DNA of 64,000 nt, from assembly GCA_002477545.1 (NCBI GenBank), contig DLQJ01000007.1, positions 87,188-151,187 of the forward strand. Direction: 5' to 3'. The stretch comes from Patescibacteria group bacterium UBA7435. Its GTDB lineage: Bacteria; Patescibacteriota; Minisyncoccia; Phycocordibacterales; UBA918. Both the position numbers and the translations under genes were made by a program. Shown here piece by piece: positions 9,932 through 42,188 of the stretch; the first letter of the stretch is position 1, and each line of letters opens with the position of its first letter. A model generated the notes under the pieces. That model was not told where the DNA came from. It saw only the letters and a program-made list of their open reading frames with translations, and made no database searches.

Positions 9932-10880
9932 TTTCTTCTTCAGTTACGTCACTGGTACTCGACGTGGTTGTCCCATTTTCTAAATCAACCAAAATCGTGT
10001 CTGGCACTGGCACCGTAAACAAATCAGACTTTATCTCAGTGAGAATTGCTTGTGCTTCTTCAAAAGAAACACTCTGTATTGGTGTGATTCCAACCGACAC
10101 TAAGCGGATACTCGACAGAGGAACCTCTGGCGAAACATAACCATACTGCTCTGGACGTGATGCTTCAGATTGCACCACACTCACTTCACCATACACTCCT
10201 GAAGTGATAGACGGGAGTACCACCAAATCACCTTCTGAAATCTCAATTCCTTGTGGTACTCCCACACGTAATTGTCCACCACCGATCCCTACAGCATTAG
10301 TGTAAATGTCAGGACCTATGATGTATACCGTTGCTTCAAAGCCGGCAGTTGTTGCAAGCTCCACAAGCGCACTGTGTGCTGTGGCATGCTTCACAATTCC
10401 AATGACCGTATTTTCTCCTATAAATACTGGAGCACCGGTGACTACACCCTCTTGCGTTCCTCGATCAATCATCAGGGTGTCGTAGGGCAAAACACCTGGT
10501 CTTCCAATTACTCCTGCAAGTACCCGTTGTTCTCCATGGTCTCCCAAAAGACCTCGTAATTCTTTATTTTCTTTTACTAATGTATTGAGTGTAAAAATAT
10601 CACCCCCGACAGTAGCAAGCTCTTGTCGCAAAGTATGTATCTCATCAACTAACTCAGTTCGGTTACGTAAATACATTGGCAAACTTCCACCTGACTCTGC
10701 AACCCACGTCTTTACACCATTTATTGGTGCCACAACAACACTAAATACTACATGGAGCGCTTTAGGCACGAGAAAAAGGAGCACAAGACAAACAAGCGTA
10801 GTAACTACTATGCGTGTGAGATTCTTATTCTGAGAGGTGCGGCGATAATTCCCCCTCGTTATCGACGAGAATTTCTTCAT
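9921..10880 (-). CDS. mreC: rod shape-determining protein MreC
   Basis: 319 aa; TM, coiled coil and beta-rich MreC domain; acidic C-terminal tail. Confidence 0.8.
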   Translation of the reverse strand: MKKFSSITRGNYRRTSQNKNLTRIVVTTLVCLVLLFLVPKALHVVFSVVVAPINGVKTWVAESGGSLPMYLRNRTELVDEIHTLRQELATVGGDIFTLNTLVKENKELRGLLGDHGEQRVLAGVIGRPGVLPYDTLMIDRGTQEGVVTGAPVFIGENTVIGIVKHATAHSALVELATTAGFEATVYIIGPDIYTNAVGIGGGQLRVGVPQGIEISEGDLVVLPSITSGVYGEVSVVQSEASRPEQYGYVSPEVPLSSIRLVSVGITPIQSVSFEEAQAILTEIKSDLFTVPVPDTILVDLENGTTTSSTSDVTEEENEE

Positions 10881-11898
10881 AATTGTCCAAGTTCTCTAAT
10901 ACAATACCAGTTCCACGAACAACTGCACGCAATGGGTCAGGCACAATATATACAGGCACCTGCATAACTTCTTGCAAAAGAGATGCTAGACCAGGAATAA
11001 GCGCTCCTCCTCCGGCGATATGAATACCTCGCTGCATTACATCAGCAAGTACTTCTGGAGGTGTTTTTTCAAGCACCGAACGCACCGCCTCAACAATCGA
11101 ATCAACCGAGTGTGAAATTGCTTCTTTAATATCAGTGTCAGTAATAATTACCTCACGCGGGAGTCCTGTTACTACGTCACGCCCGCGTACCACCATTTCC
11201 TTTTCTTCATCATGACTAATAGATGCAAGCATTACCTTCGCATCTTCAGCTGTCTTGTCTCCAACGAGCACTTTAAATTGATCTCTGATGTAACTGATAA
11301 TTGCAGCACTTAAATGATCTCCCGCCACTCGAAGATTTTTTGCAACCACAATTCCATTAAGTGAGATTACTGCAATGTCTGTATTCCCACCTCCTATGTC
11401 TATAATCATGTTTCCAATAGCCTTCCCAACAGGAAGCTTTGCACCAATAGCAGCAGCCATTGGTTCTTCAATTAAAAATACTTCACGTGCCCCAGCATTA
11501 CGAGCCGCATCGCGTGCCGCCCGCATCTCTACATTCGTAATTCCCGACGGAACGCCTACAAGTACACGAGGAGCGATAATACTACGCGTGTCACTACGCA
11601 CTTTATTAATAAAGTACGCAAGCATTTCTTCGGTTACTTCAAAGTCCGAGATCACTCCATCAACCAGTGGGCGAATCACTTGAATATGGTTTGGCGTGCG
11701 CCCCATCATAACTTTCGCTTCGTTACCCACTGCAACAAGTTGCCCTGTTTTTTTATTCATTGCAACGATCGTCGGTTCATTTAACACAATGCCTTTACCC
11801 TTTACATACACAAGTGTATTTGCTGTCCCAAGGTCAATACCAATATCAGTTGATACCGCTTCCACCATTCTATCTATGTGTTTGAGTATTTTTTTCAT
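10825..11898 (-). CDS. mreB: rod shape-determining protein MreB
   Basis: Actin-fold motifs GIDLGTANT, GIVLNEPT, DIGGGTT; start chosen at MKKILKH (11898), 10 nt after the proS stop. Confidence 0.9.
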   Translation of the reverse strand: MKKILKHIDRMVEAVSTDIGIDLGTANTLVYVKGKGIVLNEPTIVAMNKKTGQLVAVGNEAKVMMGRTPNHIQVIRPLVDGVISDFEVTEEMLAYFINKVRSDTRSIIAPRVLVGVPSGITNVEMRAARDAARNAGAREVFLIEEPMAAAIGAKLPVGKAIGNMIIDIGGGNTDIAVISLNGIVVAKNLRVAGDHLSAAIISYIRDQFKVLVGDKTAEDAKVMLASISHDEEKEMVVRGRDVVTGLPREVIITDTDIKEAISHSVDSIVEAVRSVLEKTPPEVLADVMQRGIHIAGGGALIPGLASLLQEVMQVPVYIVPDPLRAVVRGTGIVLENLDNYEEILVDNEGELSPHLSE

Positions 11899-11908
11899 TA
11901 CAGTATAT

Positions 11909-13162
11909 TTACACAGCAAATTTGCTGTACAGTTCATCTTCAGTCATATAGGACACATCTCCAGTTGCGCGTGCAACCACTTCAAATTTTCCCTCCTCTT
12001 TCATTTTTTTACTTACCACTACACGATACGGCATACCAAGTAGATCCGAATCAGCAAATTTCTGCCCTGGTCGTGCATCACGATCATCATACAACGTTTC
12101 CACTCCTCGCTTTTGCAATGCACTATAAATACCATCAGCCCAATCTTTAATTTCTGAATCATCACCATTAAGACCAATGAGGTGCACTGTAAACGGAGCA
12201 ACACTTTCCGGCCAGACGATTCCTTTGTCGTCAGAAAGAAGATCAACCACCGTACCCATAGCGCGAGCAGGTCCAATACCGTATGAACCCATAATAACGG
12301 GTTGATCATTTCCTTCTTCATCTTTATACATAAGACCAATGGCTTCTGAGAATTTGGTTCCTAAAGAAAAAATATTTCCAACCTCAATACTCTTCCGTTT
12401 TTCTAAATCATCTTTAGTAACGCCAAGTTCTGAGAGGTCAGCTTCTTCAAGCACTTCTTCGTTTACTGCGATACCCTTCTCTTGATCTACATACACAATA
12501 TCTTCCCCAGCTTCAGCAAGTGTTTGAAACTCGTGGGAGAATTTTGTAAATGCACCTCCGGATGCAAATGTTTTGTATGTCACTTCTCCAATACCAATGC
12601 GGTCAAAAATCCGTGCATATGCCTGCGCACACGCTTCGTAAAATTCGTCATGCTGTTCTTGGGTTGCACAGAATGAATACAGATCTTTCATTGCAAACTC
12701 ACGGGTTCGCATGATTCCACTTTTAGCTCGCATTTCATTACGGAATTTCGTTTGAATCTGGTATGCAAAAAACGGCAGGTCTTTGTACGATGAAACATAC
12801 TGTCGCATCAGATCAGTAATCACCTCTTCATGAGTCCAAGCAAGTCCCACCTCACCACCTGCTTTAAGCTCAGACTTAAACCATACGTCAACATTCTCAT
12901 CACTCCACCGATCTGAAGTTTTCCAAAGTGCTGGATCTTGTAAAGATGGCATATGCATCTCTTGCCCTCCAATACCATTCATTTCTTCACGAATAATAGT
13001 ATTGATTTTTTCAATCACACGAAGACCTAATGGGAGAAATGAATACGCTCCAGCCATATTCTTGTAAATATATCCTCCTTGAATAAGTAACTGAGCATTT
13101 TTTGCTACCTCATCTGACGGTGCTTCTTTTTTTGTTTTACTAAAAAGTTGTGATTGTTTCAT
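11909..13162 (-). CDS. proS: prolyl-tRNA synthetase (class II, short form)
   Basis: Class II core motifs, anticodon-binding and C-terminal domains; start moved to the internal Met (MKQSQLF). Confidence 0.8.
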   Translation of the reverse strand: MKQSQLFSKTKKEAPSDEVAKNAQLLIQGGYIYKNMAGAYSFLPLGLRVIEKINTIIREEMNGIGGQEMHMPSLQDPALWKTSDRWSDENVDVWFKSELKAGGEVGLAWTHEEVITDLMRQYVSSYKDLPFFAYQIQTKFRNEMRAKSGIMRTREFAMKDLYSFCATQEQHDEFYEACAQAYARIFDRIGIGEVTYKTFASGGAFTKFSHEFQTLAEAGEDIVYVDQEKGIAVNEEVLEEADLSELGVTKDDLEKRKSIEVGNIFSLGTKFSEAIGLMYKDEEGNDQPVIMGSYGIGPARAMGTVVDLLSDDKGIVWPESVAPFTVHLIGLNGDDSEIKDWADGIYSALQKRGVETLYDDRDARPGQKFADSDLLGMPYRVVVSKKMKEEGKFEVVARATGDVSYMTEDELYSKFAV

Positions 13163-13512: not shown

Positions 13513-14607
13513 CTAGAAAATTTTAGTCAGGTCATTGAAAGTGACAAGAATCATCAGTAGCATAAGCAGCATGAACCCAGCAATATTCAATCGTGCAACC
13601 CACACTGGATTAATGGGCTTTCGTGTTACCACTTCAACACCCACCATGACCAAACGTCCTCCATCAAGTGCTGGGAACGGTAACATATTAATAACAGCAA
13701 GATTCAATGAGATCACTGCAGTAAACATAAGGAGTGACGTCAGACCAAACTCAGCTGCATCTCCTACTAATCCCACAATGCCAATTGGTCCTGCAACCTG
13801 TGAAAAGTCAGCAGTTCCTTGTACGCTTTGTCCGAGCAGTGTAGCAATTCCAATGGTGATCGCTTTAAGTGAAAACACAGTCGTCTTCGTTGCACTCCAA
13901 AGTGCTTCATGCACAGGCTCTTTCACCGTTTCAACAAGTGACAACGCTACTCCTACAGCAGCTCGTTCAGGATCATCAAGAATCAAACCTTTCTCTGGGG
14001 TTATTATTGCTTCTGCAGTCTGCCCATCAAGCGTGTACGCGATAGTCACTTCGTTTTCACCATTTGCCTGCGTAAATTCTGCAAACGCTGAGGGTGTAAG
14101 TTCGTCAGCAGCATCTCCATTTACTGAGAACCCTGTAACCTGTGCCCCAACAGGAAGCAGTGCAACGTCAGCAGGGCCTTCGTGCACCACGTGTACCACG
14201 GTTAATCGTGCACCATCAGTAGCAACATCTTCATCAACCGCCGTAGGAAGACCTACCATAAACACAATTGCGAACAAGAACCATGCAAAGATGATATTCA
14301 TTGTTACCCCTGCAATCAGTACTGCAGCCTGTGCCCATTTACTCTTTGCAGTAAAAGAGTCAGAAGGAATATCTCCATCGACAGTAACATCTTCAGCATT
14401 TTCACCTGCAATTCGGACAAACCCTCCAATAGGCAGCGCATTAAACGTGTACTCGGTTCCCCGCCATTTCTTACCAAATAATTTCGGTGGAAATCCAATA
14501 CCAAACTCATCTACCCGCATTCCTGTTTTCTTAGCAACAATAAAGTGCCCCCATTCATGTACTAGAATAAGTACAAAAAGTACCAGGAAGAATAATAGAA
14601 TAGTCAT
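13513..14607 (-). CDS. rseP: RIP site-2 zinc metalloprotease RseP
   Basis: HEWGH (HExxH) motif in the first TM; PDZ region; LDGG motif. Confidence 0.85.
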   Translation of the reverse strand: MTILLFFLVLFVLILVHEWGHFIVAKKTGMRVDEFGIGFPPKLFGKKWRGTEYTFNALPIGGFVRIAGENAEDVTVDGDIPSDSFTAKSKWAQAAVLIAGVTMNIIFAWFLFAIVFMVGLPTAVDEDVATDGARLTVVHVVHEGPADVALLPVGAQVTGFSVNGDAADELTPSAFAEFTQANGENEVTIAYTLDGQTAEAIITPEKGLILDDPERAAVGVALSLVETVKEPVHEALWSATKTTVFSLKAITIGIATLLGQSVQGTADFSQVAGPIGIVGLVGDAAEFGLTSLLMFTAVISLNLAVINMLPFPALDGGRLVMVGVEVVTRKPINPVWVARLNIAGFMLLMLLMILVTFNDLTKIF

Positions 14608-14609
14608 AA

Positions 14610-15158
14610 TTAGCGAGAGATTTCAATTTCTTTCTGTGTGTAGAGCGCTTCCAATTGTGTATTGATAGCTTCAACTTTCTTTTGGGCAGATTCCTTTTGT
14701 GTAAACTTCTCATCCTCACTAATATCTCCGTCTTTTTGTTGCTTCTCCAAGTCTTTCATAAACTCATCACGCACAGTACGTACTGATACACGTGCATCCT
14801 CAAGCTTACTTTTTCCAAGTTTCAATAATTGTTCACGTCGATCTGAGGTCAGTTCTGGGAAAATAACTCGCAAACCAGCAGAATCAGTCGCAACTGAAAT
14901 ACCTAAATCTGCTTCTCGTAATGCAGTTTCTATAGCAGTGATACTCCCTGCATCCCATGGAGAAATACGAAGTGTTCGTGCATCCTCAACACCCACTGAA
15001 CCAACTTGGTTTAATGGCATCATACTTCCGTAGTTCTCTACCTTAATACTATCCAAAAGTGCAGGCGTTGCCTGTCCTGTTCGAATACCAATATATGCGG
15101 TGCTTAACCACTCTAAAATTTCTTTTCCTCGTGCATCAATGTCTATCATATGTATCAA
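14610..15158 (-). CDS. frr: ribosome recycling factor
   Basis: 182 aa with full-length Frr similarity. Confidence 0.9.
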   Translation of the reverse strand: MIHMIDIDARGKEILEWLSTAYIGIRTGQATPALLDSIKVENYGSMMPLNQVGSVGVEDARTLRISPWDAGSITAIETALREADLGISVATDSAGLRVIFPELTSDRREQLLKLGKSKLEDARVSVRTVRDEFMKDLEKQQKDGDISEDEKFTQKESAQKKVEAINTQLEALYTQKEIEISR

Positions 15159-15185
15159 TTTATTTACGTATATATAGTAGCACAG

Positions 15186-15809
15186 CTACTGTTTTGGTAG
15201 TGCTAATGCTAACTCTTCACACAACATCTTCGCAGAAGCGCCCGGAGTTTTACTGTATTCTCTGATAAATAATACTGTCTTTAACAACAGTGCATTTTTT
15301 TGTGTATCTCCAGAAGCATACACTTCAGCTCCACAAAGCACATCCTCAAAAAATTGTATTTCTTTTTTCTTAGCCGCATCAGCAATGGAAGCGAGGCGTC
15401 CTGCATAATCATCTGCGACAAACATATCAAATGTATCATTGCTTAGCATTGCTATTGCACTGTCTGAGCTGATAATGGCTACACGTGATCGTAGTGTAGG
15501 AATAAGCATTCCCTCTTGTGGTATGACCAAATAAAATTGCGCGAATTCTGGTGGGTCTTCAAACAGTTTCAGTAAGGCGTTTTGTGATTCAATAGGCAAT
15601 ACTTTAACCACCAATACAAACACGCGCATATCTTGTTCAATTGGTTTTTGTAGTGCGTCAGTTGATAAGGTACGTGCATCAGCAATACTAAATCTATCAA
15701 GGACTATATGCGTAACATCACTTGATGATTTTTTATAAGCTTCAGGTACTCCAGAAGCTTCTAGGGTGGAAGCTATACAAACATTTGCGTGATGATCATC
15801 AGTAGTCAT
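15186..15809 (-). CDS. holB: DNA polymerase III delta-prime-like clamp-loader subunit (short)
   Basis: LLKLFEDPP (LLKTLEEPP box) and TLRSRVAI (SRC sensor) present; only 207 aa with no P-loop. Confidence 0.55.
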   Translation of the reverse strand: MTTDDHHANVCIASTLEASGVPEAYKKSSSDVTHIVLDRFSIADARTLSTDALQKPIEQDMRVFVLVVKVLPIESQNALLKLFEDPPEFAQFYLVIPQEGMLIPTLRSRVAIISSDSAIAMLSNDTFDMFVADDYAGRLASIADAAKKKEIQFFEDVLCGAEVYASGDTQKNALLLKTVLFIREYSKTPGASAKMLCEELALALPKQ

Positions 15810-15873
15810 GTCGATAAGTATACCAAAGGAAACCCCACAGTACGATTACTCGTACTGTGGGGTTGGTACTTAG

Positions 15874-17469
15874 TTATGCAACGGGTGTGTCGGTAAATTT
15901 TTTACCCAGAATGTGTTTAATAACGCGGCGCAGGTAATGTTCAAATGTCTCTCCATGTTCATGAAGAATTCCTTCTTCATACCGCCAGCCGTTCATATAA
16001 TCAGTGATACTGCGCTTGATTTGTGGTGTAGCTTCATCAAAACGTCCTGCGACAATCGCTGACATAGTCAGTTGTGAAAGTTTTTTATACAATGGGTGCT
16101 CAACTCCGCTTGGCCCTGTACCAAACAGTCCACTACTCTTAAACAGTCCCCATTCTGAAATAAGTTGATTCAAACCGTTTGTTACGTCAGGGGTCATCAG
16201 CGGATCAAGTGAAGCAATCTCAGCATCTTTTCGTTGCTTGTCAGTAACTGCAGCTTCTTGTTTTTGTGAAGTTAGAAGGTCCGCAATTTGTTTCTCTTTT
16301 GCAACTGACAGCATGTCTGAGGATGCATTTTCCACTTCTGGAACTACGGGGGCAACATTAGGCACGGGAGTAACTGCTAGTTTAGCAACTTCAGGGCTTG
16401 ATGCTACAGCAGGAGCAGGTGATGTCTCAACAACCGGTGATACCGTTTCTGCAACCACCTCTGGTACATGTGTTTGGTGTACCGAAGCAAAACCTGATAC
16501 CGCAGGAGCCGTAACGGGCGCCACGGGTTTCGAAGCATCGTCTGGCGCAATAGCAGCAGGTGTCGGTTCGACAATTGGTTCTGCTGGTACTTGTTCAATC
16601 TTTTTATTGGCTGAAGTTTCAGATACTGGTGCTGTTTTTTGTTCTGGGGGTACAGTATCTTGCACAATACCCTTTGAACCCACTGTTACTTGCACTGACG
16701 CAAATGCAGTCTCAAGACGCACCATTGCTGCTTCAACTTCTCCAGATGATCCGCCGTTAGTCTTCTTCATAGCGTCCAATAACGCACTCATGTACTCACG
16801 TCCAACTTCATTATTAACATCAATAAGATTTACCGGATTCCCAACCAGTGTATTAACTTCTTTTTTAATTTCTTTGATTCTATCTGCTGTTGATGTTGTT
16901 GATTCAGATCCAGAAGCCACAACTGGTTCTGGAGTAAGTACGTCAGGCACCTCTGCAGCAGGTTCATTAATAGGCTGTTCAGCTATCGGTTGCTCAGGTT
17001 CTGAAATTTCGACCTTTGTTGGTTCTACTGATTGAGCTACGGGTGCGACACGTGATGTTTGTGACGCTGTAGATATTGATGCTGGAGTAAATCGTGGTTG
17101 CATCCGAGTATTCCCCATACGATTCAAAGGTTTTTGTGTCTTCACTACTTCAGGAGTAAACACTTCCGATAATTCTTCCACAGCTGTAACGGCTTCTTCC
17201 TCTCCAAGTACCGTAAAACCATACTCAGCAAAGGTAGTCCGTAATGTGTCAGTTACTTGAGCATCAGGAACTGCGCGGAATGAAAAAATCATGTCACGCA
17301 ATTCATTTTTGGTGTCTACCGGTAGAATACTGTGGTGAATCTTTTTAAGAAGTTTGAGTACTGAAATTTCATCACGCAGGTAAAAGGCAACGCTTACTTT
17401 TTGCGTTGAAGAACCAATGGATGAAGAACCTCCTGTCATACTCGACATATCCCACACAGTATACACCAA
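15874..17469 (-). CDS. hypothetical protein with a ~250-aa Pro/Ala/Val/Glu-rich low-complexity linker
   Basis: 531 aa; structured N- and C-terminal segments; no TM; 41-nt gap to the upstream gene. Confidence 0.5.
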   Translation of the reverse strand: MVYTVWDMSSMTGGSSSIGSSTQKVSVAFYLRDEISVLKLLKKIHHSILPVDTKNELRDMIFSFRAVPDAQVTDTLRTTFAEYGFTVLGEEEAVTAVEELSEVFTPEVVKTQKPLNRMGNTRMQPRFTPASISTASQTSRVAPVAQSVEPTKVEISEPEQPIAEQPINEPAAEVPDVLTPEPVVASGSESTTSTADRIKEIKKEVNTLVGNPVNLIDVNNEVGREYMSALLDAMKKTNGGSSGEVEAAMVRLETAFASVQVTVGSKGIVQDTVPPEQKTAPVSETSANKKIEQVPAEPIVEPTPAAIAPDDASKPVAPVTAPAVSGFASVHQTHVPEVVAETVSPVVETSPAPAVASSPEVAKLAVTPVPNVAPVVPEVENASSDMLSVAKEKQIADLLTSQKQEAAVTDKQRKDAEIASLDPLMTPDVTNGLNQLISEWGLFKSSGLFGTGPSGVEHPLYKKLSQLTMSAIVAGRFDEATPQIKRSITDYMNGWRYEEGILHEHGETFEHYLRRVIKHILGKKFTDTPVA

Positions 17470-17510
17470 AGAGGTACGAGCTGTGCTCGCACCTCTTGTG
17501 GATACCTTTT

Positions 17511-17819
17511 CTAAACTCCCTGACTTTGAATACGAGAAACAAATTGTTGCATAAACGAATGCTGTTCTTCCTGCAGGATCGTGTTGAACGATGGATATGT
17601 TTGCTGAATATGGGCAAGTGTTGCATCAAAAGTGTCATACGATTCAATGGCATGTGTAAATGCATGCAGCTGATCTTCGGTTAGTGTATCCATCAAACGC
17701 ATAATGGATGCATCAAAAACTAATCCGCCAATTTTAGCCACAAATGCAGCTCGCTGTGTTGGTACATAATTCTCAATCCCAAGTACCTGTAGTTGTTCTG
17801 TTGTAAGTTGCACTGACAT
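17511..17819 (-). CDS. hypothetical protein (102 aa)
   Basis: ORF separated by 1 nt from the upstream gene. Confidence 0.45.
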   Translation of the reverse strand: MSVQLTTEQLQVLGIENYVPTQRAAFVAKIGGLVFDASIMRLMDTLTEDQLHAFTHAIESYDTFDATLAHIQQTYPSFNTILQEEQHSFMQQFVSRIQSQGV

Positions 17820-17820
17820 A

Positions 17821-19416
17821 CTATATATACTTAGTTACACTTTCAAAAAATGGCTGCAGGTTAATGCCGTTTTCATCCCCCTGAAAAACGGTGTGTATAT
17901 CTCCTGAATCAATTCCCATCTTTTTTGTAAGTTCGGTGTGTGCATTTGGATTTTTTTCTACATCAGCAATAAGTGCCCACATACCGGCAAGGAATTGTGC
18001 ATTGGAAACATCAAGGCCTTCAGCTATAGAATGGTCAGCTTTCCATGTTTCAAAAGCAGCTTCGGAAACTGTATCAATCACTTTACCTTCAGCGTTCTTT
18101 GCTCCCGAGAATACATATGAGACCTCTTGTTCACCTGGAGACATCTCAGAGGGAGCTGTATAGGTAGATGAAATACCTTCAGCTGAAACATGCGTGTTCA
18201 TTTCTGCTGCAGAAGTGAACATTGAACCGTCCAGTGTGGTAATGACGTCAGTCTGTTCTATAACCGTACCTTCTTCATTTATGGAAGATATCTGCTCTGA
18301 TTCAACTGACTGATTACCTATGTGTTTAATTCCTGAATCTGGTGTGGAAATATCATTTGTTGATGCATGTGCAGTTGGAACTTTAGGTATTGAAAAAGCT
18401 GGGTTAGACATATCTTCGTTATTAAGCATCGTTGGAAATGTCACTAAAGCAGCTAACCCTATGGCTTTGGCAGTACTCCAGAACCCCTTTCTGTCTTTTT
18501 TTATTTCACTAATTTTTTCAAAATATCCTCGTTCTGAAGCTCTTGTCTCAAGCGTAGCTTGCATCTCATTGAGTACTTCTTCAGGTTTTTCATTCTCAGA
18601 TAATTCGACCTTTTCAATAGGTTCACTTTCACTAGAAAAACCAACGAACTGATCGTCAGTCGCATCCTTAACACGCATATCGGGTGTTAACACAAGTCGT
18701 TCTGATTTTTTATTTTCCCCATCTGCTTCAGGTCCAACATTCTGAGAAAGTTCGTTAAGACGTTTAGTCTCAGACAGTTGAAATGCTTCAAACCCCTCTG
18801 CCGTATGCTTCATATCTGCATTATCATCTTCAGGAAGATCAAGATCACTTTCCACAGAAGTGACAGGTTGATCATCACTCAGGGCTAATGAGTCAGGTTC
18901 TACAATCTCTTGATTGACAGAATCTTCTTCATCTTCAGGAATAAGTGTTTCTAACTGCACTCCATTTTTTCTTGCAAAAGTTTCAACACGGTTACGCAAT
19001 TTTACCAATGCATTAAATTTAGTTTGTATATCTTGGACATCATCTTCCGTAAGAGCTGCATCACCTTGCTCTTTTGCTTTACGTGAGACTTCACCAAGCG
19101 CTTTCTTTAATTTTGCATACTGCATGCGAAGCGGGAAGTTTCCTTCCACTTCTTCTTTCGAGAGCCCCAGTCGGGGACTTTCATATCCTAAAGCAGTACG
19201 TATCTGATATCCTTCTGTAAAAAGTACAATTGCAGATTTAAACATCTCTTTTCTTCCTTCTTCAGTTTCTAAAGAGACCATTGGCATCTCAACTGCTTCT
19301 TGAGCAATTTTTGATTGCTCAGGTTTATCGCCTCCCGAACCAGAACCTTTCTCAGGTTCGTGTACCACGGAAAGATTAAACTCACCGTACCGTTTTTTGA
19401 AAGATTCTAAACCCAT
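17821..19416 (-). CDS. hypothetical acidic protein with a single central TM
   Basis: 531 aa; acidic coiled-coil-like N-terminal half; TM (GLAALVTFPTML); Ser/Thr-rich probable extracytoplasmic C-terminal half. Confidence 0.5.
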   Translation of the reverse strand: MGLESFKKRYGEFNLSVVHEPEKGSGSGGDKPEQSKIAQEAVEMPMVSLETEEGRKEMFKSAIVLFTEGYQIRTALGYESPRLGLSKEEVEGNFPLRMQYAKLKKALGEVSRKAKEQGDAALTEDDVQDIQTKFNALVKLRNRVETFARKNGVQLETLIPEDEEDSVNQEIVEPDSLALSDDQPVTSVESDLDLPEDDNADMKHTAEGFEAFQLSETKRLNELSQNVGPEADGENKKSERLVLTPDMRVKDATDDQFVGFSSESEPIEKVELSENEKPEEVLNEMQATLETRASERGYFEKISEIKKDRKGFWSTAKAIGLAALVTFPTMLNNEDMSNPAFSIPKVPTAHASTNDISTPDSGIKHIGNQSVESEQISSINEEGTVIEQTDVITTLDGSMFTSAAEMNTHVSAEGISSTYTAPSEMSPGEQEVSYVFSGAKNAEGKVIDTVSEAAFETWKADHSIAEGLDVSNAQFLAGMWALIADVEKNPNAHTELTKKMGIDSGDIHTVFQGDENGINLQPFFESVTKYI

Positions 19417-19420
19417 ATCC

Positions 19421-22195
19421 CTACATCATACCAAATGGATCGTCGATTTTGACTTCTGGTTTTTGATAACGCTGTGCGATATCTGCCTCAACCTCAGCTC
19501 TGGGCTTCCCGTACTTCTGGTAACTCATCTCGATCATTCGTGCAACTCGTGCATGATCAGTATCCTGTGGCGCATGCGTTGCCATACTAAATGGCTTTGT
19601 TGGAGTTCCATTGGCAAGTACTCGCATATACGCAGTACGATTAGGTACATTCATTAAGTCAGCACTTTCAAACGTTGGTGCAAATTGAGATTCAAGATAC
19701 TGTGCGTCCTCAGGTCCCGTACGGAACACCGCCATGGATCCAACGTTTCCAAATACTGCGTCTTTAATATCTTCATCAAGCTGTGCAATAAACTGGTGTG
19801 CAACGGTAAGACCAAGTTTATATTTTCGGGCTTCTGAGAGAATTGCGGAAATAGAATTTGTTGAAATATTCTGGAACTCATCCATGTGTAAGTAGAAGTC
19901 AGGGAAGCTCTTGGTAGGATCATCTACGCGCGAAAGAGCAGCCATAAGAATTTTTCCCACCATAATCATACCAATGAGATTCGCATTGATTTCACCAAGC
20001 CGTCCCTTTGAAAGATTTACCAACAGAATTTTCTTTTGATCCATCACCTCACGGAAATCAAACGCTGATTTCTGCTGTCCAATAATTGGACGCATGTAAT
20101 CGTTCGCGGTGAAGACATCAAATTTTGAAACAATGTAGGGCACAATATTTTCAAGTGAGGCTTCCCCTCCTGCCTTAGTTGCAATCTCCCTCCAGAACTG
20201 GACCACCACAGGGTTCTTAGCTTTCTCAAGTTTCATGCGACGGAATTTCGCATCAACCATGACGCGTGAGATGTCCATCAACGTACTTCCACTATCAGGA
20301 TCCTCCATAACCAACAATGTTGCATTACGAAAGTACTGCTCAAACATAGGACCCATGGATTCTGGATTTCCTCCATACAACTTTTGGAATATAGAAAAGA
20401 GTTCATTCACCACAAAGGTCTTCTGCTCAGGCTTATTAATATCGTATTCAAGCATATTAAACCCAACCACACGGTCCATACGTGACGGGTCAAAATAAAT
20501 CACGTCCTTCTCACGTTCAGGTGGAATTGAGCTCAAAATATCTTCAATATCCGTTCCATGAGGATCGATCATACACACCCCAGCTCCAGAAGCGATGTCT
20601 TGCGTGATCATGTTCTTCATCAATGTCGTCTTTCCTGTTCCTGTCTGTCCAATGATATAGAAGTGACGCAGTCGATCTTCTTGCGAAATGTATACAGGCC
20701 GATCAGAACCACGGTGCGAGTTGGTCCCAAGTAGCGTTCCGTCATGAGGCATCTCACTTGGTGCAGCAGCTGTCTTTGCGCGTGATTGCTTAAATTCGGG
20801 AGATGAATCAATGCCATCTGCAGGAAAGTGAACCATCGTCGCAAGCTCAATCAAAGAAAGAGGTAACGCACGCTTTGTTAAAAATTCACGAAATGAGAAG
20901 GCTTTTATTTCACGTTGCAGAGCCGTGCCTGAAAGATGTGTAAACGTAACCTTGTTTCCCCGTGTGTGCTCAAACTGATTAAAAGTAGCTTCAACCTCAC
21001 TAAGAATTTGCGTAGCTCGTGCACCATCTTTTGCCGAAACAGCAACACGAATATTTGCTTCGACAATCGGTGCAGTTCGTTTTTCTGAAAAGAGATCAAT
21101 AACGTCTTGGTCAGATTGTGCAGTAGGAAGGTGTTCGTCATTTTCTTTTTTCTTAGCACTCCCAGACACTAAGTCCTTCACACTCACAAACATGTCCCCA
21201 CTAAACGTACTACGTGCGATAGCTTCCTTAACCTTCATTCCTTTCTCAACACGCTTGATGATTCCTTCGTACTGCCCTTTGTATTTACCAGGCGCAGTTT
21301 TGATAACCACTTGTAGTGCAGCACCTCCTCCATCTTTCTCTATTTTTGAAAATGCGTTTAGAAGTACTGCAAACGGATCAGTTTCAAAATTTTCTTTTGA
21401 ACGAATTGGGTAAATTGGATGCTTAGCAAGCTTCGCCACTGCAACTTTGGAAGTCCCGCCTTCAACAAAGACATTGTAATCGTGTTTTTGTTCGGTAAGA
21501 ACCACGTCTGGGTAGAGGGAGAGAATCTGTTTTTGGAACAAGTCTATATATTGCGTTGGTATTGCCACATAAAAAATGATGTGATCACTCCCCTCTGGCG
21601 TGGCAACTTCAAGTACATAATGCTCATTTTTAGTATGTTGCCCTATAGCCTGCATTCCTGCATAAAATTGTTCCATCATGCCAAACAGCTCAGAGAGTTG
21701 TTGCTCATGTCCCTCTTTAGTGCGTATTTCAGGAAGTGCAACTTCAAAGAGTGTCATATGCAAAATATGCCATGGCGCAATGCCTTCTTTTAAATCCTGC
21801 ATTTGTGCACCTTCCTTAATAAGTTCAACTAAACGTCGATGTACCTCATCGGTTTCAAATGGGTTGTTACTCTTCTCCAGGACAGACAGTGCGTTGTGAA
21901 TTCCCTTTTCAAGTGCCAGTTGCAGCACTTCTTCAACAACATTGGTAGACGTAGTAATGTGCTCTGCGTGAGAAGTCACATCTTCGGGCTCCATTTGATG
22001 CTCAGAAGATAAAACCGTATTTGGGGTAAATGTGCCATATTCAAAAAGCTCCTGCTTTCCCACCGTTTCGAGTTCAAGTGTATCGGCCTCTGGAGCACGG
22101 TCTAAAAGCGTTCGCTCTTTCTCAGCGATCTGTTGACGTAAGTATGAAATTTCCTCCTCGGGAGAAGAAAATTGCTTGGGAACACCCTCGAGCAT
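19421..22195 (-). CDS. FtsK/HerA/TraD-VirD4-superfamily P-loop NTPase with a large novel N-terminal domain
   Basis: 924 aa; Walker A GQTGTGKTT; Walker B LHMDEFQ; ARKYKLGLTVAHQFIAQL translocase motif; ~480-aa N-terminal domain with no TM. Confidence 0.65.
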   Translation of the reverse strand: MLEGVPKQFSSPEEEISYLRQQIAEKERTLLDRAPEADTLELETVGKQELFEYGTFTPNTVLSSEHQMEPEDVTSHAEHITTSTNVVEEVLQLALEKGIHNALSVLEKSNNPFETDEVHRRLVELIKEGAQMQDLKEGIAPWHILHMTLFEVALPEIRTKEGHEQQLSELFGMMEQFYAGMQAIGQHTKNEHYVLEVATPEGSDHIIFYVAIPTQYIDLFQKQILSLYPDVVLTEQKHDYNVFVEGGTSKVAVAKLAKHPIYPIRSKENFETDPFAVLLNAFSKIEKDGGGAALQVVIKTAPGKYKGQYEGIIKRVEKGMKVKEAIARSTFSGDMFVSVKDLVSGSAKKKENDEHLPTAQSDQDVIDLFSEKRTAPIVEANIRVAVSAKDGARATQILSEVEATFNQFEHTRGNKVTFTHLSGTALQREIKAFSFREFLTKRALPLSLIELATMVHFPADGIDSSPEFKQSRAKTAAAPSEMPHDGTLLGTNSHRGSDRPVYISQEDRLRHFYIIGQTGTGKTTLMKNMITQDIASGAGVCMIDPHGTDIEDILSSIPPEREKDVIYFDPSRMDRVVGFNMLEYDINKPEQKTFVVNELFSIFQKLYGGNPESMGPMFEQYFRNATLLVMEDPDSGSTLMDISRVMVDAKFRRMKLEKAKNPVVVQFWREIATKAGGEASLENIVPYIVSKFDVFTANDYMRPIIGQQKSAFDFREVMDQKKILLVNLSKGRLGEINANLIGMIMVGKILMAALSRVDDPTKSFPDFYLHMDEFQNISTNSISAILSEARKYKLGLTVAHQFIAQLDEDIKDAVFGNVGSMAVFRTGPEDAQYLESQFAPTFESADLMNVPNRTAYMRVLANGTPTKPFSMATHAPQDTDHARVARMIEMSYQKYGKPRAEVEADIAQRYQKPEVKIDDPFGMM

Positions 22196-22198
22196 ATC

Positions 22199-22240
22199 TC
22201 CCTCTATTATAGGTGCTTAGTACGTAAATGACGTAGAGTG
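22199..22240 (-). promoter_or_regulatory. putative promoter of the ATPase operon (leaderless)
   Basis: Minus-strand TATAAT (plus 22206-22211) lies 10 nt from the ATG at 22195; weak -35 TTTACG. Confidence 0.3.
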
Positions 22241-22361
22241 TAAGTGGAAAAGAAATAACGATGCAGGATTGCGCCGTTATAATTCACAAAGATGAAGGCA
22301 TACATCATTGCGGGCGTGAGTTCAACAATCTAGCCATCATCTCACCATCAAACTCTCAATT

Positions 22362-23375
22362 TTACCGCTTCGTTAGGATTGTGCGCTTGTAGGTGTCTAG
22401 ATGTTCCAGAGCCACCCCAGTCCCCTTCGCGACACAAAACAGTGCCTGATCTGCAAGAAGTGCTTTCACTCCGGTACGGCGTCGGATCAATTCTGGAAAA
22501 TTCCGTAACTGTGACGTTCCTCCAGTCATAATAATTCCGTTGTCAATAATGTCTGCAGCAAGCTCAGGTGGTGTTTCTTGAAAAACATCCTTAATTGCCT
22601 TAACCATTTCTCGTAGTTCTCGCGAGATCGCACGCACAATTTCATTAGTTTTGATTTCTGTAGTTCGCGGTAGACCCGAAAGTAAGTCCCGTCCCTTAAT
22701 ATCCATAGTGATCTCTTCCTCAAGTGGCAACGCTGAACCCACCTTAATCTTTATGTCTTCCGCAGTTTTTTCTCCAATAGCAAGATTTCGCGTTTTCTTT
22801 ACATAATCAATGATCGCTGCGTCAATTCGGTTTCCTGCGCACTTTACTGAGTTCGCAGCCACAATACCGCCAAGTGAAATCACCGCAACATCGATTGTCC
22901 CTCCACCTATATCTACAATCATATGTCCCTGCGCTTCATATATAGGCACTCCCGCACCAATAGCAGCGAGAATTGGCTCCTTCACCACGTATGCATTTTT
23001 TGCACCAGCTTTTGCTGCTGCTTCTACTACCGCACGCTTTTCTGTAGAAGAAACTCCAGCTGGTACGGACACCATCACTTCAGGTCGAAAAATATTGTAT
23101 TTACTAAGTGTCTTCTTAAGAAAGTACCGGAGCATTGCTTCAGTCACTCGGTAGTCAGCAATCACTCCATCCTTCATAGGTCGGTACGCACGGATACTTT
23201 CCGGAGTTCGTCCAATCATACGCTTTGCTTCAGCACCTACAGCAAGCACCTGATTATCGTCAGAGACCGCCACCACTGACGGTTCGTTAAGTACCACTCC
23301 CTCACCAGGAACAAACACCAGTACATTAGTTGTACCTAAATCAATCCCAAGTTTTGGAGTAAATGATGAAAACAT
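22362..23375 (-). CDS. mreB: MreB paralog (actin-like ATPase)
   Basis: 337 aa; GIDLGTTN, DGVIADY, DIGGGT, MTGGTS motifs; second copy, 10.5 kb from the first. Confidence 0.85.
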   Translation of the reverse strand: MFSSFTPKLGIDLGTTNVLVFVPGEGVVLNEPSVVAVSDDNQVLAVGAEAKRMIGRTPESIRAYRPMKDGVIADYRVTEAMLRYFLKKTLSKYNIFRPEVMVSVPAGVSSTEKRAVVEAAAKAGAKNAYVVKEPILAAIGAGVPIYEAQGHMIVDIGGGTIDVAVISLGGIVAANSVKCAGNRIDAAIIDYVKKTRNLAIGEKTAEDIKIKVGSALPLEEEITMDIKGRDLLSGLPRTTEIKTNEIVRAISRELREMVKAIKDVFQETPPELAADIIDNGIIMTGGTSQLRNFPELIRRRTGVKALLADQALFCVAKGTGVALEHLDTYKRTILTKR

Positions 23376-23398
23376 TGAGCCTCAATAGTAGCCTGTTT

Positions 23399-23435
23399 TA
23401 GGAAAAAGAAAAGGGCGGATTAAGTATCCGCCCTT
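23399..23435 (-). terminator. rho-independent terminator
   Basis: aagggcggat-taagt-atccgccctt, T-tract on the minus strand. Confidence 0.7.
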
Positions 23436-23444
23436 ATCGTCAAA

Positions 23445-23666
23445 CTACGCAGCTTTATGTTTTCTTAAGACCTCGTCGAAGGTCCCCTTACAAACCAAAA
23501 AATTTACTGCGTCGGTTGTTTTAGAAGCAGTAAGATCAGCTGCAACTACAACACAAGCTTCTTCAGAAAATTTCCCGTTCGTATCAACAGGAAATAAATT
23601 TTTTCCGTTATTTTCATCACGCACTACACACCATATTTCCTGTGCTACATCACTACCATCATCCAT
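23445..23666 (-). CDS. hypothetical small protein (73 aa)
   Basis: ORF with its own terminator. Confidence 0.4.
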   Translation of the reverse strand: MDDGSDVAQEIWCVVRDENNGKNLFPVDTNGKFSEEACVVVAADLTASKTTDAVNFLVCKGTFDEVLRKHKAA

Positions 23667-23763
23667 TTTTCTACCTCCGAATCTGTAATGAAAAGACTAT
23701 ACCACAATATTTTTGATAGAGCAATTAATACTGTATATAGCGTTTGTGCTATAGTGCAGATAT

Positions 23764-25263
23764 ATGGATAATATTGGAAATCGAATCGCTTCCCTGCGCG
23801 AACAGGCACGCTTTACACAATCTGTCTTAGCAGAAAAAATCGGCACCACACAAAGTGCGGTGGCACGAATGGAAACAGGAAATCAAAATATCTCAACTGA
23901 AATGGTACGAAAAATAAGCAAAGCGTTAAATAAAAATCTCTTGACCGGAACACCTGGATCAGTAAATCTTCAAATTGAAGGTGGGGAGACGCTCTCGGGA
24001 ACTATCCAAACCAATACTTCGAAAAACGGTGCGGTTGGTCTTTTGTGTGCGTCATTACTAAATACAGGAACTACTACCCTACGTCGTATGCCTCGTATTG
24101 AAGAAGTATATCGCTTGATCGAAGTGCTTGAGAGTATCGATGTAAAAATCGAATGGGAGGGTGATCTAATGAAAATTACCCCACCGAAGAAATTCGATCT
24201 TTCGAAGATCAACGTAGAAGCAGCCCGCCGCACACGAAGTATCGTAATGTTTATTGGTCCACTAATGCATCACCTTAAAAAGTTCTCACTTCCACAATCG
24301 GGAGGTTGTAAACTTGGCAGTCGAACAGTGAGACCTCACTTCTACGCACTTGAACACTTTGGTGTGAATATCGAAACAACTGAGGACGCATTTGAAGTAA
24401 CTGCATCACCCGTATGTCCAAGTGAAATTATTCTCTACGAATCAGGTGATACGGTAACTGAAAATGCACTTTTTGCTGCAGCACTCTCCCCGTGCACAAC
24501 GACGATTAAATACTGTTCGGCGAACTATATGGTACAAGAAATGTGTGCCTTCCTTATTGCATGCGGGGTAAAAATTGAAGGAGTTGGAACCACAACACTT
24601 ACCATAACAGGTATACCTGAACTGGCACTGGATATTGAATACACACTGGCAGAAGATCCAACCGACTCGATGTTCTTCATTGCAACTGCGATTGTTACCA
24701 ACTCAGAACTCACTATCACACGTTGCCCTATTGATTTCCTTGAACTTGAGCTTCTGAAGCTTGGGAAGATGGGATTCAAATACACGCAATCAGAACCGTA
24801 TCTCAGTGATAATGGACTAACGCGTTTAGTAGACCTTGTAACCAAACCCTCTAAACTCACCTCACTGCACGAAAAAGTGTACGCTCGACCTTACCCAGGT
24901 CTGAATATCGATAACCTTCCCTTCTTTGCAGTTATTGCAACCCAAGCGGATGGGCAAACGCTCATCCATGATTGGGTATATGAAAAACGAGCAATTTACT
25001 TCACTGAACTTGATAAGCTCGGAGCTGAAACCATGCTTGCTGATCCACATCGCATCTACATCACCGGACCAACAAAACTACGAGCAAACGAGCTCGTATG
25101 CCCTCCTGCACTACGTCCTGCAACCATTCTGCTTATCGGAATGCTTGGCGCAACCGGAACATCAGTACTGCGTAATATCTATAGTATCAATCGAGGATAT
25201 GAAAATCTTGTAGAGCGCTTGCAGTCACTTGGTGCGAAGGTGTCGTATCTTGAGGAATTTTAA
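23764..25263 (+). CDS. murA: XRE-family HTH domain fused to UDP-N-acetylglucosamine 1-carboxyvinyltransferase
   Basis: N-terminal ~60 aa is a Cro/C1 HTH; remainder aligns to full MurA including the catalytic Cys (GGCKLGSR) and C-terminal RGYENL. Confidence 0.85.
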   Translation: MDNIGNRIASLREQARFTQSVLAEKIGTTQSAVARMETGNQNISTEMVRKISKALNKNLLTGTPGSVNLQIEGGETLSGTIQTNTSKNGAVGLLCASLLNTGTTTLRRMPRIEEVYRLIEVLESIDVKIEWEGDLMKITPPKKFDLSKINVEAARRTRSIVMFIGPLMHHLKKFSLPQSGGCKLGSRTVRPHFYALEHFGVNIETTEDAFEVTASPVCPSEIILYESGDTVTENALFAAALSPCTTTIKYCSANYMVQEMCAFLIACGVKIEGVGTTTLTITGIPELALDIEYTLAEDPTDSMFFIATAIVTNSELTITRCPIDFLELELLKLGKMGFKYTQSEPYLSDNGLTRLVDLVTKPSKLTSLHEKVYARPYPGLNIDNLPFFAVIATQADGQTLIHDWVYEKRAIYFTELDKLGAETMLADPHRIYITGPTKLRANELVCPPALRPATILLIGMLGATGTSVLRNIYSINRGYENLVERLQSLGAKVSYLEEF

Positions 25264-33070: not shown

Positions 33071-33108
33071 AAAAAGGGCTGCACATGTGCAGCCCTTTCT
33101 GTTTTTTA
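33071..33108. terminator. bidirectional terminator (phoH2 / putative short + strand transcript)
   Basis: agggctgcaca|tgtgcagccct perfect palindrome with T-tracts on both sides. Confidence 0.75.
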
Positions 33109-42095: not shown

Positions 42096-42188
42096 ACGTA
42101 CACGAATGTTAACAAGTAATAGTCTTACCCTACTCCTCAGACAGCATATTGGCAATGGTGACAGAATACTTGGTATACTGTATTTATT

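Follow-up and report, generated by a model that had tools for sequence, protein, structure and literature searches.

The 64,000-nucleotide (nt) stretch of contig DLQJ01000007.1 of Patescibacteria group bacterium UBA7435 analysed here (the window) encodes on its minus strand a P-loop ATPase of 924 amino acids (aa). We consider the chances about even that this protein is a domesticated type IV coupling protein (T4CP) without a transmembrane segment (TM), in which a VirB4-like N-terminal region is joined to a VirD4-like ATPase domain and which is tethered or adapted by lineage-specific partners. The candidate partners are encoded by the three genes downstream, referred to as P2, P3 and P4, and the gene upstream, mreB2, encodes an MreB paralogue. 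Orphan T4CPs are already known as a phenomenon and this is not a categorically new system; new here are the domain anatomy and the likely partners. A preliminary description of this DNA, made from the letters alone, stands in part: the genes, the clade of the ATPase and the uncharacterised nature of its partners held up, while the gene count, an MreB-headed unit and the claimed novelty did not.

By its profile matches, the C-terminal part of the ATPase is a P-loop nucleotide-binding domain (NBD) of the hexameric VirD4/TraD type in the T4CP superfamily. PF02534 was matched at 25.6 bits over aa 508–809 (cut-off 20.1), PF10412 at 29.9 bits (cut-off 20.5) and PF01935 likewise above its cut-off, in agreement with the earlier placement of the protein in the FtsK-HerA-VirD4 clade. 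The VirD4-like model NF045973 aligns with aa 498–831 and TraG-D_C with aa 768–825, and TrwB and DotL were the top matches when a profile of the family was compared with PDB sequences. All three strings given in the preliminary description (Walker A, Walker B and ARKYKLGLTVAHQ) are present and are invariant in 22 homologues, namely at G516-K522 (Walker A), D772-Q775 (Walker B) and R790, K791, H800 and Q801. Roughly 250 aa separate Walker A from Walker B, which is the expected seat of the all-alpha domain of T4CPs. The protein is 64–89% identical over its full length in more than 120 clusters and its nonsynonymous divergence (dN) from the closest genome is 0.07, a sign of strong constraint. Its gene is a single-copy core gene with housekeeping genes around it. 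Judged by its motifs, the ATPase is thus an intact and strongly constrained enzyme of T4CP type.

The match to known coupling proteins ends at the N-terminus. TrwB, VirD4 and TraD (PDB 1e9r) share with the window protein an NBD that scores above the Pfam cut-offs and a TraG-D_C-like region, but they have a canonical N-terminal TM domain where the window protein has a soluble region of 490 aa. No hydrophobic segment was found in aa 1–490, so the membrane anchor of a T4CP is missing, in agreement with the TM-free N-terminal region of the preliminary description. The sole hydrophobic peak of the protein (aa 736–754) falls in the stretch of the ATPase domain that separates the two Walker motifs. 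The equivalog cut-offs of NCBIfam were missed as well (TIGR03743 51.3 against 366 bits, TIGR03754 36.5 against 647 and NF045973 35.1 against 250). Neither a relaxase nor a type IV secretion system (T4SS) was associated with the ATPase in the scanned open reading frames (ORFs) of the window or in 80 related loci. The scanned ORFs were 36 in number, nearly all of those of at least 150 aa on both strands, and a Pfam scan of them found no T4SS, pilus, NurA or Par genes, in line with the earlier observation that such partners are absent.

Other classes of the superfamily fit less well. The VirB4 models (TIGR00929 and NF045975) and those for FtsK and HerA make contact with the P-loop of the ATPase only. 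TIGR00929 reached 14.8 bits against 643 over aa 509–532, and AAA_10 and CagE_TrbE_VirB were not among the Pfam matches of the protein. The FtsK/SpoIIIE profile PF01580 scored 18 bits against 24 in the P-loop region only, and the TM is lacking; for HerA, NF040819 reached 16 bits against 970 and HerA_C 14.1 against 22. An identity of the ATPase as HerA/NurA, FtsK, a competence protein or a plasmid-partition protein was rejected on the basis of these sub-cut-off profiles and the lack of partner genes among the scanned ORFs.

The N-terminal region had been described as a novel domain of ≈480 aa without recognisable motif. It is instead PF26449 (DUF8128), which is a precomputed match on the identical protein and on all 120 homologues listed. 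By two methods, and in a model that leaves out the P-loop domain, the region is predicted to have the fold of the VirB4 N-terminal domain. The AF2 model of aa 1–485 alone, with 17 homologues in the alignment, has a pLDDT of 69 and a pTM of 0.68, and in a Foldseek search with it 14 TrwK chains ranked at the top (E from 1e-5 to 2e-3). The sequence profile of the N-domain found no match among PDB sequences. A soluble N-domain in front of a TrwB-like NBD corresponds to the VirB4 body plan, yet the NBD scores as VirD4/TraD and there is no TM. In VirB4 of R388 (TrwK; PDB 7o42, 8rtb and 8rtd) the region that matches the window N-domain contacts VirB3, VirB8 and the membrane. The window protein differs from VirB4 in that VirB4 profiles touch only its P-loop, in that its ATPase domain scores as T4CP, and in that no VirB3, VirB6 or VirB8 gene is adjacent.

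In front of DUF8128 the window protein has a further helical module, with helices predicted by AF2 at aa 12–127. A search with the N-terminal 490 aa returned 823 cluster representatives among 1.84 billion proteins, and the family comes in a long form of ≈905–935 aa and a short form of ≈790–840 aa that begins at about residue 145 of the window protein. The short forms are labelled by the sources as VirD4/TraG-type or DUF8128 proteins of Wolfebacteria. In 59 of 78 short-form loci a gene of ≈135 aa immediately precedes the ATPase gene on the same strand. A profile hidden Markov model (HMM) built from these upstream genes matches aa 7–124 of the window ATPase (E = 1.9e-15). By this match, either the long form arose when a small helical protein was fused to the DUF8128 ATPase, or the short form arose by fission. 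Both events speak for a helical module that functions together with the ATPase.

Relatives of the ATPase are found in at least 554 species genomes, and the family also reaches into plasmids. A tblastn search against PLSDB gave matches on 354 plasmids, with 22–27% identity from aa ≈200 to ≈880, including plasmids of Bacillus (97), Streptomyces (73), Staphylococcus (32), Clostridium, haloarchaea and Sulfolobus. The Bacillus subtilis plasmid NZ_CP032854 (24.7 kb) encodes an 886-aa homologue (WP_121549396.1) that BLASTP aligns over 705 columns, N-domain included (E = 9e-39). Its gene has ParM on one side and, after it, Replic_Relax, TcpC, TcpE and a VirB4 gene of AAA_10 type. On the Embleya plasmid NZ_CP108778, WP_331738717.1 comes after TrbL-like, PrgI and VirB4-like genes and before Replic_Relax and NlpC/P60. 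As read from these gene orders, the plasmid homologues, which have the two-domain architecture of the window protein, occupy the place of the coupling protein in conjugation clusters of monoderms. Like the window protein, the plasmid DUF87/T4CP proteins have both domains, can be aligned over the matched region given above and lack an N-terminal TM; they differ in being without the first ≈140 aa and in adjoining Replic_Relax, TcpC, TcpE or PrgI, and AAA_10 VirB4.

This conjugation context is gone in the Paceibacteria-type genome of the window. The preliminary description held that assignment of the ATPase to a known conjugation or competence system would speak against its proposal. To that extent the plasmid homologues, which sit in conjugation clusters, count against it. 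HMMs for P2, P3 and P4 found no match in the plasmid conjugation clusters. In NZ_CP032854 (3893–9466) an actin-like ParM/StbA gene lies divergently ahead of the homologue and echoes the adjacency of mreB2 and the ATPase gene; as ParM is a partition gene, this is probably a coincidence. A mobile-element or viral origin of the window locus was rejected: a search of IMG/VR viral contigs found no relatives of the ATPase, and the GC content does not shift along the locus.

The architecture had been said to match no system that could be named. The family is however already catalogued among the orphan VirD4-type T4CP homologues of Patescibacteria, which are chromosomal and of which 5,713 were reported in 2,918 of 3,035 genomes (≈96%), with only 148 near virB4 and no adjacent relaxase (Quinonero-Coronel et al., 2025; PMC12102498). 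Those authors describe the orphans as “possibly exapted” and regard exaptation as possible (PMC12102498). The window family shares the profile signatures of these proteins and annotations such as [quoted passage not shown] and “TraG/TraD family ATPase VirD4”, and was matched to them by signatures and annotations, not by accession. That study describes neither the N-terminal domain nor the helical module, split or fused, nor any partner genes. We found nothing relevant in the literature on DUF8128, DUF5663 or MreB of Paceibacteria, which are absent from PMC12102498 too. With that literature silent on anatomy and partners, the family is known as a phenomenon, while its anatomy and partners are new.

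Judged from its sequence, the window belongs to the chromosomal core of an ultra-small bacterium, a Patescibacteria member of Paceibacteria type, and the nearest sequences to it are labelled Kaiserbacteria, Nomurabacteria or Paceibacterota. The genes lie where they had been placed (Table 1), and all four proteins encoded downstream of mreB2 have homologues, which argues that ATPase, P2, P3 and P4 are real genes. By the ORF coordinates there are four genes, and not five, between mreB2 and the holB-like gene. The first of these had been described as 1–5 nt apart. This holds for the gaps from ATPase to P2 (4 nt) and from P2 to P3 (1 nt), but mreB2 and the ATPase gene are separated by 166 nt. The last gap, from P3 to P4, is 41 nt as claimed, or 71 nt with the ATG start for P4 at which gene callers begin the protein (521 aa). 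Thus only ATPase, P2 and P3 are tightly packed, and their short gaps suggest translational coupling. After frr the minus strand continues with rseP, proS, mreB1, mreC and a PBP2-type gene.

Within 14500–24000, promoter-like and terminator-like matches were no more frequent than in shuffled sequence and so do not reveal where operons begin and end. The sole strong hairpin, and the sole clear transcription boundary near the locus, is terminator-like and lies just upstream of mreB2 (23411–23435, minus strand; 10-bp stem with six GC pairs and a T-run). Ahead of the ATPase start there are a TATAAT-like hexamer and a GAGGGAG ribosome-binding site.

Table 1. Genes of the ATPase locus and predicted domains of their products, with positions in the window.
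Feature	Position (nt)	Strand	Length or residues	Description
mreB2	22362-23375	-	337 aa	MreB paralogue
ATPase	19421-22195	-	924 aa	Soluble, P-loop, three-part
ATPase, N-terminal helical module	21806-22195	-	aa 1-≈130	Separate-gene HMM match, AF2 helices
ATPase, DUF8128 alpha/beta domain	20831-21763	-	aa ≈145-455	Predicted VirB4/TrwK N-terminal-domain fold
ATPase, T4CP-type NBD	19556-20713	-	aa ≈495-880	Pfam/NCBIfam profiles
ATPase, Walker A	20627-20650	-		GQTGTGKT
ATPase, Walker B	19871-19891	-		HMDEFQ
P2	17821-19416	-	531 aa	Acidic
P2, P2N helical domain			aa 57-175	Conserved
P2, remainder				Acidic linker; weak hydrophobic anchor (aa 313-331); hypervariable Ser/Thr-rich region; conserved C-terminal ≈90 aa
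P3	17511-17819	-	102 aa	Acidic, helical; DUF5663
P4	15874-17469 (ATG start 17439)	-	531 or 521 aa	Helical modules and disordered linkers
P4, helical modules			aa 15-90, 180-255 and 380-515 of 521-aa form	AF2 pLDDT >90
P4, disordered linkers			≈aa 91-180 and 258-378 of 521-aa form	Pro/Ala/Val/Glu-rich; pLDDT <55
holB-like	15186-15809	-	207 aa	3' of P4
frr	14610-15158	-		3' of holB-like

To follow the neighbourhood we examined 80 species-level loci out of the at least 554 with a relative, in which ORFs were called and then searched with phmmer and HMMs. At ATPase identities of about 56% or more the gene order is MurA-HTH on the opposite strand, then MreB2, ATPase, a P2-type protein or none, P3 or none, P4, HolB, Frr, RseP, ProS, MreB1 and MreC. 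The P2-type protein at position 2 varies between 200 and 1850 aa in these close loci. In about 20 of them it is long, has hydrophobic segments and is accompanied by P3, and this association between long or tethered P2 and P3 has a Fisher p of 8.5e-9, uncorrected for phylogeny. P4 was found in 49 loci, all of them within the long-form clade.

Beyond this clade the order changes. One long-form locus with an ATPase of ≈50% identity (L067) reads RecJ-ATPase-937-aa protein-DUF5663-RNaseH-ComEC. At least ten short-form loci have an acidic protein of 600–1155 aa with one or two Gly/Ala-rich hydrophobic segments, followed by a DUF5663 protein, the 135-aa gene and the ATPase. Other short-form loci have PMT_2, GtrA, DnaX, CysS, MAP or Ndk as neighbours. 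The trio of ATPase, large acidic protein with hydrophobic segments and DUF5663 protein is therefore seen in three contexts and two gene orders, and its persistence through these changes supports a smaller functional module. The ATPase, a large, acidic, usually tethered and hypervariable protein and a DUF5663 protein likely form a real module. The preliminary description had named loss of linkage between the ATPase gene and its three downstream partners as evidence against its proposal. Such loss is seen in part: about half of the close loci lack P2 and P3 or have other proteins in their place, and P4 is bound to one clade, but the trio is kept.

MreB2 is tied to the ATPase by synteny only, within a clade in which housekeeping genes are equally syntenic. 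Its assignment as a second MreB paralogue is secure (PF06723 433.9 bits against 27, TIGR00904 432 bits against 366), and it is 43% identical to MreB1 (10825–11937). The mreB2 gene adjoins the ATPase gene in 56 loci, several of which have extra genes inserted between the two, and once the identity of the ATPase orthologue falls to about 50% or below the adjacency is lost. With the 166-nt gap this does away with the five-gene operon headed by MreB that had been proposed, and by these gene orders MreB2 is a neighbour by synteny and not a demonstrated component.

P2 is the most divergent protein of the locus. Only one homologue was found among 5.8 billion proteins, and compared with a genome in which the ATPase is 80% identical P2 retains 28% identity, against 39% for P3 and 51% for P4 (MreB2 92%, MurA-HTH 87%, ProS 82% and Frr 80%). 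Its dN against the closest genome is 0.45, compared with 0.07 for the ATPase, 0.08 for P3, 0.22 for HolB and 0.31 for P4. The ends of P2 are conserved and aa 313–440 are nearly unconstrained, with a dN/dS of ≈0.67 that is only a rough value because dS is saturated. P2 had been described as an acidic protein with one central TM and a Ser/Thr-rich half. The composition agrees (net charge -48, D+E up to 0.28 in aa 161–312 and S+T 0.25 in aa 332–450), and the hydrophobic segment, preceded by the K/R/W-containing KKDRKGFW, is conserved in relatives, but as a TM it is weak (Kyte-Doolittle 1.17 over 19 aa and 1.41 over 17 aa).

The P2N domain is common to the window P2 and to the position-2 proteins of 15 other loci, which are short soluble ones and one long one. 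A C-terminal domain of ≈100 aa, which we call type A, is carried by 27 position-2 proteins, including those of the RecJ/ComEC context; the C-terminus of the window P2 is not of this type and is common to few relatives. Many of the long type-A proteins have two hydrophobic segments 80–120 aa apart. With such a hairpin the N- and the C-terminus would both be cytoplasmic, which agrees with the short forms being soluble. A LysM domain in the C-terminus of P2, suspected by eye from “YTVKRGD...IYPGD” in an orthologue (locus L169), was rejected, as PF01476 was not found in the window P2 or seven relatives at E ≤ 5.

The three downstream proteins remain uncharacterised, as had been said, with a Pfam family for P3 only. 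P3 matches PF18908 (DUF5663) at 24.8 bits against a gathering cut-off of 23.7, which is marginal, and a DUF5663 homologue in a short-form locus scores 19.7 bits. P3 is ≈100 aa, acidic and helical without TM, and a DUF5663 protein recurs beside short-form ATPases too. None of P2, P3 and P4 gave Pfam matches of VirB3-, VirB6- or VirB8-like type.

P4 is cytoplasmic. Its 694 homologues belong to no Pfam family and carry no informative names, and P4 HMMs found no match outside the long-form clade. In place of the single disordered linker of ≈250 aa described earlier, AF2 predicts two linkers between three confidently folded helical modules. A function for P4 could not be taken from its fold, as Foldseek against PDB gave helical-bundle noise such as the DnaK lid (best E 0.03), and its sequence profile reached at best E 1.6 against PDB sequences. 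P2-type proteins and P4 have similar-looking C-terminal helices, for example (T)F-E-x-(Y/L)-(L/F)-x-R, that are colinear by eye. Homology of the C-terminal module of P4 to the type-A domain was rejected, since the HMM search was empty and hhalign gave a probability of 1% (P = 0.05); the resemblance is retained as no more than a lead.

If the ATPase is a domesticated T4CP, it would act as an ATP-driven translocase or as a substrate receptor. As it has no membrane anchor of its own, we infer that docking takes place through the VirB4-like N-terminal region, which could serve as a platform for lineage-specific partners. The acidic and usually membrane-tethered P2 might tether or adapt the ATPase, and the small acidic P3 could be an adaptor or chaperone tied to the tethered forms of P2. 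P4, with its several modules and flexible linkers, would probably serve this clade as one more scaffold or adaptor. The cargo may be protein or DNA, either handed to an unlinked Patescibacteria T4SS or moved independently. A comparable arrangement has been proposed for pIP501, where the coupling protein TraJ is brought to the membrane by the separate small protein TraI (PMC12857230). TraI, a small membrane protein with two TMs, is unrelated in sequence to P2, a large, acidic, modular and hypervariable protein whose interaction with the ATPase is inferred.

Several observations weigh against this reading of the locus. Every link among ATPase, P2, P3 and P4 rests on gene neighbourhood. Eleven complete close loci have neither P2 nor P3 between ATPase and P4, and about 13 more have a short P2 (268–605 aa) with no hydrophobic segment and no P3, so membrane tethering by P2 cannot be universal. 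In the window itself the putative TM of P2 is weak. The linkage of P4 is confined to a clade in which holB, frr, rseP, proS and mreB1 are equally syntenic and may thus be inherited gene order, and loci with ATPases of ≈50% identity of the type Adk-MAP-ATPase-Ndk-DUF2238-RNaseJ-like-SLOG have no partners at all. The model behind the fold assignment of the N-domain is only moderately confident. Finally, in S. epibionticum a t4cp homologue, a putative counterpart, was reported as non-essential while the T4SS was essential (PMC12102498).

Many of these points would also be expected if there were no module, and the ATPase acted alone or with a T4SS encoded elsewhere, with P2, P3 and P4 as unrelated, fast-evolving neighbours held by conserved gene order. 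The whole region from MurA-HTH to MreC is syntenic in the clade, P2 and P3 are so often missing or replaced there and P4 is missing outside it, and in several lineages the ATPase is flanked only by Adk/MAP/Ndk or GtrA/DnaX. The promoter- and terminator-like matches, which do not exceed those in shuffled sequence, leave operon limits unreadable. We nevertheless regard this explanation as unlikely, as a DUF5663 protein and a large acidic protein reappear non-syntenically, in the orders RecJ-ATPase-P2-P3-RNaseH-ComEC and P2-P3-135-aa gene-ATPase, the 4-nt and 1-nt gaps suggest translational coupling, and the presence of P3 co-varies with the type of P2.

The ATPase could alternatively be an FtsK/SpoIIIE-like cytoplasmic DNA translocase for segregation, resolution or division, with MreB2 and P4 as cytoskeletal or divisome adaptors. 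Membership in the FtsK-HerA-T4CP superfamily without a TM, the conservation typical of a core gene, and the envelope and division genes of the window (mraW, two class-B penicillin-binding proteins, mreB1-mreC and a murA-like gene) would fit such a role. So would priA and holB nearby, dnaX near the ATPase in the short-form clade, and the architecture, though nothing more, of P4, which resembles that of linker-rich divisome adaptors. We hold it to be decidedly unlikely, since PF01580 stays below its cut-off, no gamma/KOPS-type domain is present, the MreB adjacency disappears outside one clade, and membrane-tethered partners recur.

A very unlikely variant is that P2, and perhaps P4, is not a tether but cargo, a hypervariable host-interaction protein that the coupling protein would recognise, with P3 as its dedicated chaperone or adaptor. 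Parallels for such a pairing are IcmS/IcmW with DotL and VirE1 with VirE2. The low identity of P2 next to a well conserved ATPase and the elevated dN/dS in aa 313–440 could be read in this way, although saturated dS makes the latter rough. P3, at ≈100 aa, acidic, helical and seen only with long P2, would fit as well, and so would the similar-looking C-terminal helices of P2-type proteins and P4, but the similarity between type A and P4 is not significant. Moreover, many long P2 proteins have the two-segment hairpin, whose cytoplasmic ends would suit a protein that resides in the membrane.

Slightly less probable still is that the ATPase is a DNA-uptake motor of natural transformation that would draw DNA through ComEC. 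VirB4-type ATPases serve the ComB system of Helicobacter pylori and the archaeal Ced import systems. Besides the RecJ/ComEC lineage (L067), a Wolfebacteria-type contig (L086, 9602–22379) has a short-form ATPase and separate 135-aa gene three genes from a ComFC-like gene, beyond which lies a complete PilM-(N)-PilO-PilB-PilT-PilC-pilin-PilD cluster. The two may hint at a link with DNA uptake, but they are only two of many contexts, most of which are housekeeping. No ComEA, ComFA or ComEC was found near the ATPase among the scanned window ORFs, and ComEC was reported as dispensable for viability in S. epibionticum (PMC12857230), whereas the window ATPase looks strongly constrained.

Returning to the domesticated coupling protein, a further step is conceivable but unlikely. 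The DUF8128 ATPase, a tethered acidic partner and the DUF5663 adaptor could constitute a minimal, T4SS-independent inner-membrane motor, essential to Paceibacteria-type Patescibacteria and a living intermediate between VirB4 and VirD4. If so, such a stand-alone motor might exchange DNA or protein with a host or place surface molecules. A large part of bacterial diversity belongs to the Patescibacteria, nearly all of which carry coupling-protein homologues without a known job. A VirB4-type domain in place of the anchor, a split N-terminal module and candidate partners make the notion of an orphan, possibly exapted T4CP testable. The VirB4-like/VirD4-like hybrid is common to the homologues on Gram-positive and archaeal plasmids and bears on the divergence of the two conjugation ATPases.

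Some neighbouring genes have unusual features of their own. The holB-like protein matches the short delta' family PRK08485 (profile length 206), where the usual delta' has ≈330 aa. P4 as a lost N-terminal part of this short HolB was rejected, because the 206-aa NCBIfam family matches the 207-aa protein alone. Short-form lineages have dnaX instead of holB, two genes downstream of the ATPase. Divergent to mreB2, 23764–25263 on the plus strand encodes a MurA/EPSP-synthase-family enzyme with a fused N-terminal HTH_3 (XRE-type) domain. This fusion, unusual for a peptidoglycan-precursor enzyme, is kept at 499–543 aa in about 50 related loci.

Farther away, 33106–34638 (minus strand) encodes a 510-aa fusion of a PIN domain and a PhoH-like ATPase, and the only RNA-like feature of the window is one tRNA-Asn. 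A 697-aa ORF at 40062–42155 (minus strand) without Pfam match has an N-terminal hydrophobic anchor or signal and long Gly-rich GGxGG(D/K) repeats. It lies within the sole compositional outlier of the window, at 40–42 kb (GC 0.47, GC skew -0.32).

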